A stretch of DNA of 64,000 nucleotides, taken from the NCBI GenBank assembly GCA_020137815.1, contig CM035359.1, positions 1,178,001 to 1,242,000 of the forward strand, read 5' to 3'. Every line of letters starts with the position of its first letter. The first letter of the stretch is position 1. Source of the stretch: Hormiphora californensis. Lineage: Eukaryota > Animalia > Ctenophora. Shown one piece after another: positions 2,505 to 54,576 of this stretch. The translations under genes were made by a program, and so were the position numbers. The notes beneath the pieces were generated by a model. It was not told the origin of the DNA. It saw nothing but the letters and a program-made list of their open reading frames with translations, and searched no databases.

Positions 2505-4126
2505 TTTGGAGACACTTAGCACACTGATTTGAGAGAGAGAGAGGGCACCCTACAGGAGTCAAATGTTAATTATTCTGGTCAATTAGGCCCAATTGTGCTC
2601 AATTAGAGCACTTTTTCCACAAATAAGAGCTTTTAAAAGATACTCATGCCCTGTTCAAGTGAATCAGGGTATCAAAATCAGTGGGTGAGTGTCTCCAAAT
2701 GAACTTATAGAGATTACAGGGAAAAGTGGTAATTATTTTGGTCAATTGGACCCAATTAGAGCACTTTCTCGATCTCTGAGAGCCTAGAAAAATCCAGTAA
2801 ACAGGGGGTTATCCAAGTCCGGGGTTTGTGCCCTCATACACTTCATACGTTTTCAGGGGAAGTTGTAATTTCGTCAATTAACCCCATTAAAACCTTAGAA
2901 TCACTTTAAAACCCCCTGGGTCTTTTAAAAGTGCTCATGGGGTTTAGGCCTTTAAATTCGGTTTTTATTTTTTGCTTTATATCAATTTTTCAAATTTTTC
3001 TTTTTTATCACCTGCCCTTTCCCCCAGTTCTGTGAAGCAGAAAGGGGGGAAGGTCCCCCCCCCCTTTTTTGGTACTTGCCCCCACCTGAATTATAAATTT
3101 AAAAAAGGGGAGGGAAGAGATCATTTTTTTTACTTTTTAAAAATCCAATTTTTTAAAAACCCGTCATGTGATCAGATCACGTGTACTTTGGAAAACCCCG
3201 AAAATTCCCCCGGCGAAAAAAACCGCTTTTTTACTTATGTGGCATAGGCTCCCAGACGGTTGGGGCCCGGAACCCCAACGACCCGGGGGAAACGGGAGAA
3301 AATGCGATTTTGGATGACTCTGAGACGTTTTTTTTTGAGTTTCTATCTCAATTTTAGTGATGGCGGATAAAACCGTACCCCCCCCCCAAAAATGAAATAC
3401 CTAGAATAAGTTCCCCCGCGGGTTTAGATCACTGCAAACTTGGATCAAAACCCTTTTCCCCCCCCGGGTTTTTTTACAAGCATGGTGAAACCTTGTTAAT
3501 CCCACCCACAAAAAAAATTTGGGGAACTCCATCATTTGCACCCCGTGTGCCCTTTTGCAACCCACCCAAATTTCTTCTTTTGGGCCAAAAGGTTTCTTCT
3601 TTGGCGCCCCATTAGAACCTTTGGGGGGCAAAGAAACCCCTTTTTCCCCCCGAAAAGGGTTGCGCCCCTTCTTAAAAGGGAGAAAATCAAATTCCCCTGT
3701 GGGGGGTTGGGGGGTAAGGGGGCAAAGACAAAACCCCAAATTGCCCCCCAAATTTTTAAAAAAAGAATTTTTTTTCAAGAAAGGAGGGAAATTTTTTTTT
3801 AAATACCGAATTGTGGGAAAAACAAAATCCCTTTTTTAAAAATGTTTAACCCAAAACCCCGGGAAAAATGGTGTGGGGGGAAGGGGAAAAAATTAGAAAA
3901 TTAAGGGGGGCAAACCCTGATAAGGTCATACCTAAAAATAAAAAAATCCCCTTAAACTGACTTTATCTAACTAAAAACACCCCACCTTCTCCAAAAAAAT
4001 TAAAAAACTTTTGGTCTTTCTTCCTTTCCCTTCTCCTTCTGGCGGCCCAATCATTTCCCCCCCCTATAATACTCATTGTACTCACCGTTTATCCTCATCA
4101 CCCCCTATAATACTCATTGTACTCAC

Positions 4127-7100
4127 CGTTTATCCTCATCAGAGCCCATGACAGAACTATCATCAGCGGTCACAACCCTCGAACCAGCCGACCTTCCCCC
4201 AGTCTGACTCCGTGACACCCATCTCTTCTCCTCATCCGAGCCAACGACAGAACTCTCTTCCCCAGTCATACTGCTGTCCGCCTCGCTTGTCATGATACTG
4301 CTGGCATCACTACAGATCGAGCTGGCATCTGAGTCAATGCCACCGGAGTGCTTCCCTGGGTATCTGGGGAGAAGTTAATTGGTTATTTAATTGGTTATAG
4401 TTGGTTGTAATTGGAACGAATTCAAGAAGTCTATGTATAGCAGATTCAAGATCTGTTAGTTAACTCACTTCTTGTGGGTTCCGTTAGCAACTCCTCCGCT
4501 AGACGGGACAGCTGCTGATGGGGGTGCTGAAATTATTTGGGGTTGTTATACGTTGATATTAGTCGGTATTCCAAATGGATACACCTTTGATTTCATATCT
4601 TAATGGCAATTAAAATAACCTACAATGCATACATTGCATAGCCTCTAGTGCAATTAAATGTATCACTATCAAGTGTTCAGTAACACGCTTGAACGAACGT
4701 GTGTGTGTAGCTTGACATGCAAGGTGTGAAGACAGCTGCTGCAGCACACACACCCTACACACACTGAGCTCAATAACCCTAACTTGATTCTCTCTCTAGC
4801 GATAATATTGAATTTAGGGTAGTTTCAGCAGTAGTAGTATCAGCGGTATCAGTAGTTAGATACGTATCTAAACTAGTATCGATGCTACTACCTATTAGGT
4901 ACACATTACACAAGATCTACACAGCTATGGGCGGGATTATTTGACAATTAGTGGTTTATCCATGCAATTAGATAGAACACAACTCCCCTAATTGGGGGTT
5001 CTTAATTGGTTGGGAATTATAAGTATGTACTACTACATTTCAAATTAGCACCACCGAGAGTCTAGAAGATTACTTAAAATTACATCCCTTGATATTGTAT
5101 CATTCCCCTGATATTGTATCATTGTATTGCCCTAATTACATGTACATTATAACATAGCCAAAACGGCCAGATGGGAAAAGTCCAAATTATCCTTTTCTAA
5201 AGTGTGTGTGTAACTCACGTTGGTAGGTCGGATCAGGTGCAACCCAGGCTACAACACGTCCATTGTAGTACGGTAATTTTGCGGTGGTATCCTTTATCTC
5301 TTGTTTCACGATGATATCATCATCAACCGTCTTAAAATAGTACCTGGAATTATGACGTCATTGTTATTAAAATAGTACCTGGAATTATGACGTCATTGTT
5401 ATTAAATTAGTACCTGGAATTATGACGTCATTGTCATTAAAATAGTACCTGGAATTATGACGTCATTGTTATTAAAATAGTATCTGGAATTATGACATCA
5501 TTGTCATTAAAATAGTACCTGGAATTATGACGTCATTGTTATTAAAATAGTACCTGGAATTATGACGTCATTGTTATTAAAATAGTACCTGGAATTATGA
5601 CGTCATTGTTATTAAAATAGTACCTGGAATTATGACGTCATTGTTATTAAATTAGCACCTGGAATTATGACGTCATTGTTATTAAAATAGTACCTGGAAT
5701 TATGACGTCATTGTTATTAAAATAGTACCTGGAATTATGACGTCATTGTTATTAAAATAGTACCTGGAATTATGACGTCATTGTTATTGAAATAGTACCT
5801 GGAATTATGACGTCATCCCATTATGTATTTTTACCGTTCTCTAATCTATGATAAACATACACTACGAGGCAGGTCGGTAGAACTTCGACAGAATTTAGGG
5901 TAGGTTAATTTAGGGTAGGTCTGAATTTAGGGTAGGTCTGAATTTAGGGTAGGTGAATTTAGGGTAGGTCTGAATTTAGGGTAGGTCTGTAACGTATCGT
6001 TTATCAAAGCATTGCAATTCGACATTAGGTTCTGATTAGGTCGCTGAACCGTGTCCCGTATCTCGTATCAACTCATTTCGATTCGATCTTAGTCACCGAT
6101 TAGGTCGCTGAACCACGTCCCGTATCTCGTATCAACTCATTGAAATTCGAGGTTAGACACAAATTAGGTCCCTGAACCGCGTCCCGTATCTCCTATCAAC
6201 TCATTGCAATTCGATCTTAGTCACCGATTAGGTCGCTAAACCGCGTCCCGTATCTCGTATCAACTCATTGGAATTCGAGGTTAGACACAAATGAGGTGGC
6301 AAACGAATTTTTTTTCAGGTTTCAACTCAGGATGGAACTCTTAAAGTCTACGTGCATAAACTAATAAGTGAGCAGTCAAACAGTTCTAATTTCATTTGAT
6401 GCAATACAGAACACAGTCTACCGACCTATCACCTAACTCAGTTCACCTACTTTAAGTAGTACTTAGTCTCGGTGACTAAGATGGAATTGCAATGAGTTGA
6501 TACGAGATACGGGACGCGGTTCAGGGACCTAATTTGTGTCTAACCTCGAATTTCAATGAGTTGATACGAGATACGGGACGTGGTTCAGCGACCTAATCGG
6601 TAACTAAGATCGAATTGAAATGAGTTGATACGAGATACGTGTCGCGGTTCAGCGACCTAATCAGGATCTAATGTCGAATTGTAATGCTTTGATAAATGAT
6701 ACGTTACGGACCTACCCTAAATTCAGACCTACCCTAAATTCAGACCTACCCTAAATTCACCTACCCTAAATTCAGACCTACCCTAAATTGACCTACCCTA
6801 AATTCTGTCGAAGTTCTACCGACCTGCCCACTACGAAGACAAAAAGCAACTAAACATAAACTAAGGTGTATGATTGTGCTAAATACCTGTAGCCCTCCGT
6901 CTTGCTTATTTCACGGGTAAAGTCGCCAAGGGTTATCTCTGAAAATGGAGAGGTTTTAACAAACAACACAAAACAATACCAAAACAATACCAAAACATGC
7001 GCCATACAGTTCCAAGATATTGAATAACCATATGGAAAAACAAAGGTGCAGTAGTAAACTAACTGTCAGTACTCACAAACAAACAAATTACTAACCGTCA

Positions 7101-8317
7101 GTACTCACAAACAAACAAATTACTAACCGTCAGTACTCACAAACAAATTACTAACCGTCAGTACTCACAAACAAACAAATTACTAACCGTCAGTACTCAC
7201 AAACAAACAAATTACTAACTGTCAGTACTCACAAACAAACAAATTACTAACCGTCAGTACTCACAAACAAACAAATTACTAACTATCAGTACTCACAAAC
7301 AAACAAATTACTAACTGTCAGTACTCACAAACAAACAAATTACTAACTGTCAGTACTCACAAACAAACAAATTACTAACCGTCAGTACTCACAAACAAAC
7401 AAATTACTAACCGTCAGTACTCACAAACAAACAAATTACTAACCGTCAGTACTCACAAACAAATTACTAACCGTCAGTACTCACAAACAAACAAATTACT
7501 AACCGTCAGTACTCACAAACAAACAAATTACTAACTGTCAGTACTCACAAACAAACAAATTACTAACCGTCAGTACTCACAAACAAACAAATTACTAACT
7601 ATCAGTACTCACAAACAAACAAATTACTAACTGTCAGTACTCACAAACAAACAAATTACTAACTGTCAGTACTCACAAACAAACAAATTACTAACCGTCA
7701 GTACTCACAAACAAACAAATTACTAACCGTCAGTACTCACAAACAAATTACTAACCGTCAGTACTCACAAACAAACAAATTACTAACCGTCAGTACTCAC
7801 AAACAAACAAATTACTAACTGTCAGTACTCACAAACAAACAAATTACTAACCGTCAGTACTCACAAACAAACAAATTACTAACTATCAGTACTCACAAAC
7901 AAACAAATTACTAACTGTCAGTACTCACAAACAAACAAATTACTAACTGTCAGTACTCACAAACAAACAAATTACTAACCGTCAGTACTCACAAACAAAC
8001 AAATTACTAACCGTCAGTACTCACAAACAAACAAATTACTAACCGTCAGTACTCACAAACAAACAAATTACTAACTGTCAGTACTCACAAACAAACAAAT
8101 TACTAACTGTCAGTACTCACAAACAAACAAATTACTAACCGTCAGTACTCACAAACAAACAAATTACTAACCGTCAGCACTCACAAACAAACAAATTACT
8201 AACCGTCAGTACTCACAAACAAACCAATTACTAACCGTCGGGGCTGATAGGCACGCAAACCAGATAGGGCGTATCCTCGGCACCAACGTGATATACAACC
8301 TTAGTCCCCTCACTCAT
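4127..8317 (-). CDS. DVL: Dishevelled, 5' coding exons 8317-8236, 6938-6887, 5343-5219, 4526-4469, 4363-4127; gene continues toward and past position 1
   Basis: Spliced in-phase translation MSEGTKVVYHVGAEDTPYLVCVPISPDE ITLGDFTREISKTEGYR YYFKTVDDDIIVKQEIKDTTAKLPYYNGRVVAWV matches the N-terminal Dvl DIX domain. It is followed by Ser-rich DASSIMTSEADSS. All junctions are GT-AG. PDZ and DEP exons are not visible. Confidence 0.88.
5332..5816. repeat. 35-bp tandem array (14 copies) of the Dvl exon-3 splice acceptor
   Basis: Unit TTAAAATAGTACCTGGAATTATGACGTCATTGTTA. The minus strand reads ...ATAATTCCAG|GTACTATTTTAA, and the last copy is the real acceptor at 5343. Confidence 0.95.
5868..6828. mobile_element. 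Foldback non-autonomous transposon with GGCAGGTCGGTAGAACTTCG termini and 8-bp TSD (Merlin-like)
   Basis: TSD CACTACGA at 5860-5867 and 6829-6836. Long TIRs carry 17-bp GAATTTAGGGTAGGTCT sub-repeats and ~61-bp internal repeats. Confidence 0.88.
7058..8240. repeat. 32-bp tandem array (~37 copies) of the Dvl exon-1 splice donor
   Basis: Unit ACTAACCGTCAGTACTCACAAACAAACAAATT. The minus strand carries GACG|GTTAGT, identical to the real donor at 8236/8235, plus GTGAGT. Confidence 0.95.
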
Positions 8318-11505: not shown

Positions 11506-11609
11506 CTGTTTATGTTGCCTAACAAATACATATCTGCCATTGTCCTTTCTAACACAATATGATCTACCCCCATCCTCCAAAATATATAATCAAAATAAGA
11601 AAGTCCCTA

Positions 11610-27546
<15,937 letters not shown>

Positions 27547-28340: not shown

Positions 28341-41229
<12,889 letters not shown>

Positions 41230-49749: not shown

Positions 49750-50247
49750 ATGTTTTTCGTTTTGTTTCTGTTTCTTGCATGTTGTGCAGGAGAGCAACAA
49801 AAGTTGGAATTCAAGTCCGGAGAGATGTCAGCAGTGCATGCTAGTGGAATAGCTGGGCGCGCCTTTGATGGAGATCTGACAACTAGTGCCCACTCGGCAT
49901 GCAACACGGCAGGAGAAGAAATATGGATGATACTAACTCTCAGCAAACTTGGAGATGTCACTAAACTGACCGTTTGGCCAACTCACTTGGAAGGATCCAA
50001 TAAGTGGAGGTTTAGTGGTACCAAAGTCTACGTACGAGTTGAAGAAGGAGAAGAACGGTATTGTGGTGTTGTCAGAATGCCTTCTACATCTGGTCAGGCC
50101 AGTTCTGATATTTTTTGTGAATCTCCTGGAATCACTGGGATCACTGGAAACGAGGTGGTGTTCCGGCTGCAAAAGAACGCTGGACAAGATGCGTGTATTC
50201 ATCTGTTTGAAGTGGAAGCTTACAGTTTTAAAATAAGTGAGTACTAA
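49750..50247 (+). CDS. Secreted single-domain protein with an F-type-lectin/discoidin (galactose-binding-like) fold
   Basis: Hydrophobic signal peptide, then AGRAFDG...AHS, W-x-x-L, YCG, IFCE, G-x-x-V and LFEVEAY pattern. AATAAA follows at ~50298. Confidence 0.75.
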   Translation: MFFVLFLFLACCAGEQQKLEFKSGEMSAVHASGIAGRAFDGDLTTSAHSACNTAGEEIWMILTLSKLGDVTKLTVWPTHLEGSNKWRFSGTKVYVRVEEGEERYCGVVRMPSTSGQASSDIFCESPGITGITGNEVVFRLQKNAGQDACIHLFEVEAYSFKISEY

Positions 50248-50390
50248 AGTGTGAAAACTAGAGAACACACTTTTTAAAACTGTCTGCATTTATAATCAAT
50301 AAACCCGGGCCGCCCTCTAGGGTGATTCGCTACACTACATACTGCCCGACCTGCGAAGCTGGGAGGGTGGTATATAGTCAGATATATATA

Positions 50391-53300
50391 ACGGGTGGCA
50401 ACTAAAAATTGTCACAAATTTAAAACGGCTGTAGAATTTTTCCCTTTTGAGATACAGCTTCGGGCCAGTGATAGAACGATTTTTTAGACAATTTTAAATA
50501 GGAACAATATGTAATCAAGGAATAAAATGCTCATTTTCATTGCGATAAGGCGCACGCATCATATCCTCTGATGACCCCACCCCACCAAGCAACGTAGTAC
50601 GGAGTTCTACACGGATTCTATTGATCAATAAACGACCTTGGGGGCACGGACCGGGAAAAGGAGGGGTGAAGAGAATGAGTGGGGTGGGTGGGATTGCTGG
50701 AGATGGATGAGTGCGGGCTTTGGAGGGTGTGGCGAGCGTGTGATTTTGTTGGGGCGTGAACATAGAGGAGGAAAGTTGGGATGGTTTTATGCTATGAGGT
50801 TGTTTCACGATTAGTCACGTATTTGGTACGGGGGCGAGAGAGTGTGGTGAATATGGGGTGTACCGTGGTTGTTAGTAATTAAGAATAGGGTGTGCAGAGG
50901 TAAGAGGGTGGTAGTCGGGTGATGTGGTGGTGGGTGAGGTGTGGAGCTGAGGGTTGGGTGAGTTAGCTGGTGTCAAGGGTGTGGTAGTGAGAAAGCCGGG
51001 GTGGTTATGGAGGATGGGAGGGGAGCAGGGTAGGTAAGTAGGTGGGGTGAGCTGTGTATGGGGGATGGAGGAAAGTAGATAGGGGAGGGTGAGAATTTGG
51101 TTGATCGTGGTTTAGGTGTTAAGGGCGGTAGTGTTGGATAGGGTTTATGGAGGTGTGGGGGTAGTTTGGGGTGTTGGTGTGCTGAGAGTTGGGGGGGTTG
51201 GTTAGAGTGGTATAAATTTTAGGGCAGTGGGTAGGTGGGTGTGTTAGGGAGGGGGTAGGGTGGGGGAGGGTTGGTTAGGGGAAAGGGGTCGAGTGTTGGG
51301 GGGGGGGCGGCGACCGTGATGTGTAGGGGCCAGTGGGGCTGTGTAGGGGGGGGGTGTTGGGTTGTAGGGGGGGTGGGGTGGGGATATGTGGTTTGGGGGG
51401 TTTGTTAGTGTTGGTGTTGTTTGTGTGTGGGGGGGTTGCTTGGGTGAGGGTTTGTAAGGGGGTGTTTTAGGGTGGGAAAGGAGGTGGGTGTGGGTATTTT
51501 TTGTGGGGTGTGTGGTTGAATTTTTGTGAGGGTATGTTTAGGGTTGTTCAGGGGGGGTTTCGGGTTGGGGGTATGGGATGTGAGGGATGGAGGCGGGGGG
51601 GCGGTGGTCTGTTGTTGGTGGGATGTGGGTGGCGCGATGGGTATTGTTGAGGTTGGTGAGGTCTGTTGCTTGTAGTATGCGGGTTGCAGTGGGGGATGCG
51701 GAGGCGGGTGTCGAATTAAGTGTAATGGTTCGGGGGGTTAGGTTGGGTGATATTTTTGGGTGTGTTGGTGTAGGGGAAGCGGTGGGTTCTGTATTGGTAG
51801 TGGTGGGTTTTCAGGGGGGGGGGGTGGTGGTGGGGTGGGTTGGGAGGGGGATGAGTAGGGGGGGTGAATGAGTTTGAGTGGGGTATGGGGAGGGTGGGAA
51901 CGGAGGGGAGGTAGATGGGGGAGGGTCTGTTTTGCTATTAGGTGGGGGGGGCTGGAGTAGAGGGGGGTGGTATGGAGTGAGTGTTTGGAAGGGGGGGAAG
52001 GGGATTTGTACGGGGGGGGATGTGGGGGGTGTGGGATGGGGTAGATAGTGGGGTGGGAAGGTTGTGTTAAGAGTATCGTGGTTTTTTCGAGGGAGGGAAT
52101 GAGATTGTATTATTGGTGGAGGGGTATGTATGTAGTGGTGGCAGGTTGGAGAGTAGGTGGAGGGGTTAGGAAAAGGAGGAGGTAGGTGGTTGGGGTTTGC
52201 GTATATAATTGGGGGGGTTGAGTTGTGGTTGCGTTGGTAGGTGTCCGGGTGCGGTGGGGTAGGGGCTTGTGACTATACGCTGGGGGCGAGGTCCTCAGGT
52301 GGTTATGGAGGGAGAGACTTAGTGAAGGTGAAGGTGGTGTGCTGGGGTTGAGGGGGAAGAGGTTGGTAATGGGTTGGGGGTGGTGCTAGTTGAATGATAT
52401 TGGGGAGGGGAGTCGGCGGAGGGACGGTGTTTTGTCGGTTGTTCTTTTTGTGTTTTGGGCGTTCTTTATTCATCTGCCTTGTGTTAGGAGTGTATCTCTC
52501 CCCGCCTGATCTTTGTTTTAGTCTTTGCTCCTAAGGTTTTCATCAGTATACAGTTGGTTGCTGGCTATGCGGCGGCATGGACTGATGTTGTGGTTGGGGA
52601 TGCTAGTGAGATATGGATACGGTGTGCGGGAGTAGCACGGAGTGTGGAAGAGGGGGGGTGATGTGAGTTAACGTAGGATGGTTGCTCGGGGGGAAGGTGG
52701 GCGGTGGTTGTAGTTTCTGTAGGGGGATGATGTTCGGTCGAGGTGAGAATCGGAGGGACTGGTGATGATGGAAGTGATTGGAAGGTGGGGGTGTTGGTTG
52801 GGTTTTAGGATTGGTGTGCTGGAGGAGGATGGGTGAGAGAGAGTTGGGGGTTTAGAGGGGGGTAACGAATGATTGAGGGGGGAGTATGTCGATTTTTGGG
52901 TGAGGTCTTGGTATGGGGTGTTGAAGGTAAATGGTTTTTTGTGATGGGGATTTTCAGTATATGAGGTGTGAAGATGGAAGTGGTGGGTTTTGTTGTTTGG
53001 GGGACGTGGGGGCGGGGTGGGGGGAGCGGGAACGGGGGAAGGGAGTTTTTATTTGGGATGATTTGAGGGGGTGGATAGTGTTGAGGCGTTGGGTTTATGG
53101 AAATGTGATGGGGTTATGAGGGAGGGGGTTGGTCAGTAATGCGTGAGGAGTGATATGTGGGGGTGGCTTACCAGGGTCGGGGGGGAGGTGTTTGGGAGCA
53201 CGAGCTGTCTTGAAGTAAGTGGGGAGATGATTGTGAGGGAGAGAGTTAGGGAATGTGTAGTTATTTTGTTGGGGGGGAATGTTGAGTTGGAAAGGGGTTA

Positions 53301-54576
53301 GTGTTTGGGTTGTGGAGGGGGATGAGTGATTAGATGGGGTGGGCAGGCGGGTGAGGGGGGGGGAGGGTGGGGAATAGTTTCTGGGGAGGTGTGAAGAGAT
53401 GTGTGGATTGGGGAGAATTGGGGGAAGGATTGGCGTTGTTCTGGTGTGTTGTGGGGAGTTGGTGTAATTTAGAGGAGTGTGACAGTTGGTAGTGGGGATG
53501 GGTTAGGGATGAAGTGGGAGGTGGGCGGGAAGGGTCGGGGGCAGCATGAAAACAGTATTTGTTAGAGTGGGGGGGGGGGAGGTTGTGAGGGCATGGGTGG
53601 TTGTGGATGGCTGAAAAGGAGTGGTTACGATTGTTGGGGTGAGTTAGGATGGAGGTGTGTGTGGAATGGAAAGGGGGGGTGGGGGGATGCGTCGGGTGTA
53701 TTGGTGTTGTTTGGGTGAGGAGGGTTGTGTGTGTACTGGGGGTGTGTGGTAGTGTGCGGATGGGGGGTGGTTGGTGGGGGGGGCCAGGTGTGTTTTGGGT
53801 GGAGGTGGCAGTTGGGTGGCTGTTGTGGGTATGGGGGGAGGGAGTGTGGGTAATGGAGGAAGGCGAGGAGGTGGGTAGAGTGTCTGGCTGGGGAAGGGTG
53901 GATTTAGGGCAGTGGGGGGTGGAGTTGTTAAGTAGTTAGGGTTGTGGGGGGTGGGGAGGTGGAGTGGATGTATGTTGTTGTGTGTTGACATAACCAGACC
54001 CACCAAGCACGTAGTACGGAGATTCGAAAGTTCTATGTGATCAGAAACGACCTTCCCGATGAGATAAAATTCTCAAAATTGGAAGTTTGATTGTTTATGT
54101 CATAACCAACATAACTGCCAAGTTTGAAAATTTTAGCTCATCAGGAAGTTGGTTTTACACGTCATAAATGTTTTGAGAGATCGTCGAAATGGCGATTTCT
54201 CAAATTACCTGTAAACTACGCTTTGGAGGGTTTGTTACAGAAGATTCTCACCAGGAAATTGAGTTTGAAATAAAGTTAATTTAGCTCCAAATTGTCTGAA
54301 AAATCATTTTATCACTGTCCCGAAGCTTTATCTCAAACAGAACAGGCGCTAGAGGTGCTAGAAAAGTGTGTAGATTTCATGTACTACGTGCTTTGGTGGG
54401 TCAAGAGGAAATGATGCAATATCGCAATGAAAATGAGCTTTTTATTTCTTGAAAACACATCATTCCTATTCAAAATTGCCTGAAAAATCATTCTATCACT
54501 GGCCCGAAGCTGTATCTCAAAAGGGAAAAATTCTACAGCCGTTTTAAATTTGTGACAATTTTTAGTTGCCACCCGT
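50391..54576. mobile_element. TA-flanked TIR element (Tc1/mariner-type MITE) whose interior is inflated by junk sequence
   Basis: More than 100 bp of TIR (ACGGGTGGCAACTAAAAATTGTCAC...) with TA at both flanks. It is absent from the duplicate copy near 48510-48560. Confidence 0.8.
50640..53990. other. G/T-rich, C-depleted aperiodic tract; probable basecalling artefact
   Basis: No periodic unit. It is flanked by a re-read direct repeat (CCCACCAAGCA.CGTAGTACGGAG...AAACGACCTT at ~50581-50639 and ~53999-54053). Confidence 0.75.

Follow-up and report, generated by a model that had tools for sequence, protein, structure and literature searches.

Introduction

The closest described counterparts of the locus reported here are the amphioxus "mirage" minisatellites of Adh3 and the globin genes BflGb6 and BflGb9, whose copies span an exon–intron boundary at either end of the exon (PMC3087553). 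Their units measure 10–160 bp, their copy number varies by haplotype, and one draft assembly misassembled such an array (PMC3087553). In human F7, the first unit of a 37-bp variable number tandem repeat in intron 7 spans the donor, and splicing takes the donor that lies farthest upstream; mutation of this first donor in minigenes brought the donor of the next copy into use, with retention of intron sequence (PMC1557585). The notothenioid antifreeze glycoprotein evolved from trypsinogen as a short segment spanning an exon start was amplified into coding sequence (PMC11687183). Boundary moves and duplication can likewise turn intron into coding sequence or alter gene structure (PMC2740785, PMC2891723), and in a Cryptococcus survey of 28,256 introns, at most 10 boundaries had clearly moved and de-intronization was not seen (PMC2740785). 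Here we analyze the 5′ part of the Dishevelled (Dvl) gene of the ctenophore Hormiphora californensis, located on the minus strand of a 64,000-nt stretch (GenBank assembly GCA_020137815.1, contig CM035359.1, positions 1,178,001–1,242,000; hereafter the window, with coordinates counted from its first base). Dvl exon 5 ends in two diverged copies of one sequence, of which only the second is followed by a donor.

We consider it probable that a tandem duplication spanning the exon–intron junction, together with loss of the upstream donor, moved splicing to the second copy and added 32 codons to the protein. The likeness to amphioxus mirages lies in the junction-spanning tandem copies, of which the Dvl gene holds three arrays; mirages leave splicing undisturbed, with intron gain as the proposed outcome (PMC3087553), whereas at Dvl the oldest copy is donorless and would have extended the exon. 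In F7 the unit of 37 nt is not a multiple of three, and the observations concern a disease allele and engineered mutants (PMC1557585), whereas the Dvl unit is 96 nt and in frame; the F7 order of donor use, upstream first and the next copy upon mutation, fits the order proposed for Dvl. The antifreeze case amplified a 9-bp acceptor unit into many copies in a duplicated gene with a new function, whereas at Dvl a unit at a donor was copied once, in a gene that has kept its role (PMC11687183). In Drosophila, the duplications lie within exons and give rise to introns, unlike the Dvl donor case (PMC2891723), and the passages at hand of PMC2740785 and PMC2891723 do not describe a duplicated donor as a landing site. 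Within a literature that included few subscription papers and no supplements, we found no published case of an exon lengthened in frame by way of a duplicated donor as a natural, fixed change. Junction-spanning repeats and donor shifting within them are already known; the in-frame protein outcome is the new element.

Results

Exon 5 (4127–4363, minus strand, 237 nt) is an open frame bordered by a CCCCAG acceptor and a GTGAGT donor; it encodes the Ser/acidic linker between the DIX domain and the basic region and ends in phase 2. Read in this frame, SSVVGSDEEKR is followed exactly 96 nt later by SSVMGSDEDKR and then by the donor at 4126, as the original prediction had described. The repeated exon end comprises 48 nt in each copy, copy 1 (MTGEESSVVGSDEEKR; 4223–4270) and copy 2 (VTADDSSVMGSDEDKR; 4127–4174), with 36/48 positions identical at offset 96 (12 differences, 25%), and each copy stops right at the donor position. 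The best ungapped self-match within the exon scores 25, whereas 300 codon shuffles averaged 9.0 and never exceeded 14. Copy 2 runs into the predicted live donor GTGAGT (4121–4126, phase 2), a hexamer also found at the donors of exons 3 and 4. In register with it at offset 96, copy 1 runs into a dead donor position reading ATGGGT (4217–4222), which agrees with the earlier observation that AT has taken the place of GT. Between the copies lies a spacer of ~16 codons (WVSRSQTGGRSAGSRV; 4175–4222, with the lower boundary uncertain by a few bases), presumably a former intron start. The added 96 nt are a multiple of three and form an open frame with no stop. The earlier proposal of 32 new codons from former intron is therefore correct in the gain of 32 codons and overstated in their source, as 48 of the 96 nt (~16 codons) are exon copy and ~16 codons would be former intron. 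Among 1080 donor-like and 1042 acceptor-like sites scanned in the window, no second GTGAGT donor had a dead, in-frame and open upstream copy, the other rows being simple or coding repeats; the general claim that junction arrays create new protein sequence thus shrinks to one gene, with no second case within the window.

The duplication is genuinely present in the genome. Two DNA runs from separate samples and studies, X1 (possibly the sample behind the window) and X5 (independent by record), provide contigs over both copies: X1 covers 4162–4324 in two haplotypes, and X5 covers 4111–4215 and 4186–4303. Neither of the two contig joints listed skips the 96 nt, and the 96-nt unit is seen in all haplotypes covered. 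Homopolymers are dense between 2750 and about 4250, and no contig from any of the four runs aligned at 3800–4007, so that an assembly artefact beside a poorly assembled stretch might be suspected; the X1 and X5 contigs refute this for the 96-nt unit, whose copies differ by 25%, and we give the idea practically no credence except as regards a 41-bp unit at the same donor, the only element to which it applies.

This second, younger repeat spans the live donor at 4043–4147 (minus strand). The window shows it as a perfect 41-bp tandem of two copies at 4060–4141, the form from which a later re-duplication of the donor had been proposed. At 4061, all contig depth carries 7 extra bases (24.6/24.6 in X1, 684.9/684.9 in X5), which replace the long G run of the window, and both runs show a joint from 4147 to 4043; together these give a younger donor-spanning unit of ~70–71 bp (21 exonic and 49–50 intronic) in the short-read contigs. 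The re-duplication thus holds, whereas the 41-bp unit is unconfirmed and is ~71 bp in the contigs; the 41-bp form may be a further variant beside the contig pieces listed. X5 itself contains variants of the repeat unit (two insertion forms and two joints). Sequence left of ~4060 is poor, and the stretches at ~2750–4060 and ~50000–54000, homopolymer-rich or strongly skewed, look like low-quality consensus.

We then compared alleles across exon 5. All 14 allelic differences are synonymous third positions, in a set that is incomplete where differences fell near contig ends. They include 4/4 in the added 96 nt (neutral chance 0.0035), of which the spacer accounts for 3/3 (neutral chance 0.021) and copy 2 for 1/1, and the six indel rows all lie outside exon 5. 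The X1 haplotypes differ at 10/163 bases over 4162–4324, all synonymous; silent heterozygosity here is very high. Because all 14 exon 5 differences are synonymous, the added segment is very likely translated, which would entail its inclusion in the mRNA. At 4318, separately, all X5 contig depth and an RNA contig from run X7 differ from the window by one synonymous base. That RNA contig joins exon 4 to exon 5 (at 4363) and ends at 4261. No RNA contig covers 4127–4260: X7, an RNA run with a small share, contributes one useful contig, and no contig of RNA run X9 aligned; neither outcome bears on habitat or absence. This gap, along with the tendency of mirages to remain intronic (PMC3087553), would allow 4127–4222 to be untranslated, with a non-canonical or cryptic splice near copy 1 and copy 2 as an old intronic mirage. 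Neither GT nor GC stands at 4222, however, and 96 nt without stop or indel, with four of four differences synonymous, argue for coding constraint. The spacer contains just two in-frame GTs, at 4216 and 4192, and the second X1 haplotype has neither of them, so that they are not required as donors. We regard an untranslated segment as very unlikely.

The assignment of the gene to Dishevelled, made originally from the letters alone, is borne out by a DIX match and by ordered exon matches to Bolinopsis Dvl. Five coding exons with AG acceptors and GT donors (8317–8236, 6938–6887, 5343–5219, 4526–4469 and 4363–4127) join without a stop into 184 codons. The coding part of exon 1 (8236–8317) is supported by tblastn (74% over 23 aa) and a weak, sub-cut-off Pfam DIX match; exon 2 (6887–6938) by tblastn and by its phases and joining; exon 3 (5219–5343), which holds the DIX domain end, by Pfam DIX PF00778 (E 4.4e-8, 33.3 bits against a cut-off of 22.2); and exon 4 (4469–4526) by the RNA joint 4363/4469 and its phases. 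In tblastn, four exons align collinearly with Bolinopsis Dvl at 59–74% identity, exon 5 at 59% over 44 aa. The Ser/acidic linker follows DIX in the expected order, the best matches are Dvl proteins, and the closest named relatives are lobate ctenophores, which points to a ctenophore source. No PDZ or DEP domain was found among the window sequence searched; that part of the gene lies either off the left window end or in unreadable sequence.

Relatives have one motif where the window has two. A public contig, L001, carries a full Dvl mRNA with poly(A) (74–1999) whose product shows 100% identity to Bolinopsis microptera Dvl across residues 1–200. L001, Mnemiopsis Dvl and a more distant protein, P0019, each hold a single motif with the basic run immediately after it, making three single-motif lineages of ctenophore type (P0017/L001, P0018 and P0019). 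Among 48 proteins of at least 300 aa, a set that is mostly vertebrate, includes several isoforms and contains one protein (P0006) that is probably not Dvl, 43 have one motif, five have none and none has two, as had been predicted for relatives. The second prediction, an intron at the copy-1 position, is matched in Bolinopsis RefSeq isoform X3 (P0059), in which an alternative first exon joins directly before ESRQRQ; this joint places an exon boundary after DEERSR, exactly where both window copies end. The phase there is deduced, the base following the corresponding junction in L001 being compatible with phase 2. Broader searches were uninformative: with exon 5 alone, a homologue search gave 94 candidates, none of which scored, a metagenome scan gave 597 pattern matches and no relative, and Pfam held no matching family; exon 3 alone found no match in the homologue search, and an Atlas search gave no usable match.

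As part of a tandem copy, the spacer must derive from one flank. A pure in-register exon duplication was rejected as its source at 7/48 identity to the upstream exon. Against the intron start as it stands in the window, the spacer gave anchored p values of 0.18–0.39 in 6/6 settings (later 0.16 and 0.07) and local p values of 0.22–1.0 in 5/5, so the intron-to-spacer alignment of the original prediction, which lay on poorly assembled bases, is at chance level on window sequence. The contig version of the intron start, modelled from contig table rows in a five-G and a four-G variant, has the blocks GGAGTC and TGGGGGAA in common with the spacer. A first scoring round gave local p 0.011–0.051 and anchored p 0.05–0.28; under transition-aware scoring, the five-G variant reached local p 0.003 and 0.013 and anchored p 0.020 and 0.033. 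Among nine candidate sources, only the two contig intron versions reached local p < 0.05 (0.003–0.017), and none of the other seven did so. In this comparison, the three control introns (after exons 1–3) were cut 1–2 bases off their true donors, which lowers their anchored but not their local scores. With the intron shuffled, local p over five settings was 0.001–0.013 for five-G and 0.002–0.12 for four-G. The five-G score was reached by 2 to 39 of 5087 window tiles. These comparisons give moderate support to a match between the spacer and the contig intron start.

G-rich sequence can also reach such scores: of 594 G-rich tiles, 2 to 29 attain the five-G score and 9 to 134 the four-G score, and the spacer also has a weak off-register match to upstream GGIDSD codons (p 0.07). 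The exon end could then have been duplicated with unrelated filler, or with an exon copy that has fully diverged, its intron likeness being chance between G-rich strings. We judge this rather improbable, given that the upstream flank matches at only 7/48, that the downstream flank is the best match of the nine candidates, and that both copies stop precisely at the donor position.

The spacer could instead have come from the downstream exon, if a fragment of spliced cDNA joining the end of exon 5 to the start of exon 6 had inserted by recombination ahead of the donor, or if the second half of an exonic duplicate had later become intronic. After copy 1 the window reads EEKRWVSRSQ, where Bolinopsis and Mnemiopsis read EERSRESRQR, and the tblastn match runs through this point; the first base of the spacer, A, is also the base after the junction proposed in L001. 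Set against this, the spacer compared with the L001 exon 6 start gave local p 0.32 and 0.20 and anchored p 0.34 and 0.14 (a weak test, the species being distant), S and R are common in the linker, and the spacer lacks the basic run. We consider an exon 6 origin unlikely.

Several points weigh against derivation of the spacer from a duplicated junction. The transition-aware scoring was picked after the first round, the four-G variant exceeds 0.05 in 2/5 settings, and the intron match is modest and requires gaps. The contig intron was assembled from table rows, its position directly after copy 2 being deduced. The W-V-S-R at the start of the spacer corresponds to R-E-S-R in relatives, a resemblance in line with a downstream-exon origin, and the gene's own exon 6 lies outside the window. 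The intron position in the relative depends on one RefSeq model, the RNA gap over 4127–4260 falls on the added segment, and no relative of the same genus or family was found that could polarise or date the steps.

Two further junction arrays occur in the same Dvl gene. A tandem-repeat scan of the window placed an acceptor-spanning array of 35 bp × 13.9 at exon 3 (5332–5816, minus strand) and a donor-spanning array of 32 bp × 37.3 at exon 1 (7058–8239, minus strand). Units that carry both exon and intron across a splice site, the hallmark of a mirage, are present in these two arrays and in the younger repeat at 4043–4147. Intron 2 (5344–6886), the one holding the 35-bp acceptor array, interrupts an AG|GT site, and the genomic-looking open reading frames of two relatives, P0001 and P0061, read GYRYYFK uninterrupted across its position; the intron may be a lineage-specific gain or may have been lost in those relatives. 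At 5891–6805, within the same intron, stands a mirror-symmetric element, flanked at each end by 17-bp arrays and holding 64-bp arrays internally, in opposite orientation, which looks like a foldback insertion or one of miniature inverted-repeat transposable element type.

Elsewhere in the window, a 30-bp × 6 array occupies 20813–20991 (minus strand) within a 188-codon open frame, just after an acceptor-like TTCCAG at ~20998, and may be a coding repeat. Fragments on the minus strand at ~11600–18300 and 29000–33000 resemble, by their motifs, genes for a putative CLK/LAMMER-type kinase and a putative SF3B2-type splicing factor.

Discussion

The favoured course, duplication across the junction with later death of the upstream donor, can be laid out in four steps. 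The duplication would first have given two donors, with the upstream one used first, as in human F7. The copied intron start would then have lost its in-frame stops: read in frame, the intron start as it stands today contains three stops within eight codons, whereas the spacer has none and shows TGG where the donor has TGA. An A>G change at +4 would convert TGA to TGG while weakening the donor, and the stops would have to be gone before, or together with, the loss of the donor. The upstream donor would next have died by one of two routes that both preserve the frame and between which we make no choice, G>A at +1 or a 9-nt slip leaving ATGAGT. TGAGTA occurs twice at the start of the intron, with a spacing of 9 nt, which is why the best spacer–intron alignment begins at base +10 of the intron; the copy 1 donor could thus have died by a slip between the two repeats that removed the first. 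The GT-to-AT change put forward originally thus remains apt as a description of the missing GT, with the slip as a second possible route. Finally, the longer exon would have become common or fixed, and later the same donor would have been duplicated again as the ~71-bp unit, which stays intronic.

The copies differ at 4.5/9.3 synonymous and 6.5/35.7 non-synonymous sites, and the two X1 alleles at 10/35.7 synonymous and 0/126 other sites; on these small numbers, the duplication predates the allele split, with perhaps no more than about double the divergence. The window allele of copy 1 equals copy 2 at three sites where the other allele differs, which raised the idea of gene conversion from one copy to the other, but three sites are too few to support it. 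In the 96-nt unit the donor at the ancestral position is gone and coding constraint acts on the copy, so that we class the unit as derived from a mirage and distinct from the ordinary kind. A more far-reaching reading is that junction repeats, abundant in this lineage, recurrently ratchet exon end and intron start into protein whenever an in-frame unit loses its upstream donor, with short regulatory motifs at exon ends being doubled as a result, which we hold to be doubtful. Its corollary, that a conserved phosphosite of a Wnt scaffold has been doubled here while the same donor is loaded with a new duplicate, is speculative to a similar degree.

Human DVL3 Ser-192 is a mapped phosphosite between the DIX and PDZ domains (PMC4156093). 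In P0004, from a cluster that includes chimpanzee DVL3, the serine of DSDED occupies residue 192 and aligns weakly (E 0.28) with the serine of the duplicated GSDE. The second acidic serine site, in what is probably a lengthened disordered linker, is a plausible putative phosphosite. A mutant of a neighbouring DVL3 cluster (Ser-202 to Thr-205) left TopFlash activity unchanged (PMC4156093). Lengthening of the linker with one extra serine was probably near-neutral, and the simplest reading is a tolerated linker insertion; with the insert in a low-complexity linker, the functional stakes for Dvl are probably small.

The wider meaning lies in the route. In the amphioxus report, mirages are described as silent, with intron gain as a proposed long-term effect (PMC3087553), and boundary shifts were rare in one systematic survey (PMC2740785). 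The Dvl locus looks like the opposite natural outcome, in which a duplicate offers a ready-made donor and intron passes into protein. Old and young duplicates of one donor adjoin here, and the pattern left behind, diverged in-frame copies of an exon end with a dead donor between them, is a signature that can be searched for genome-wide.

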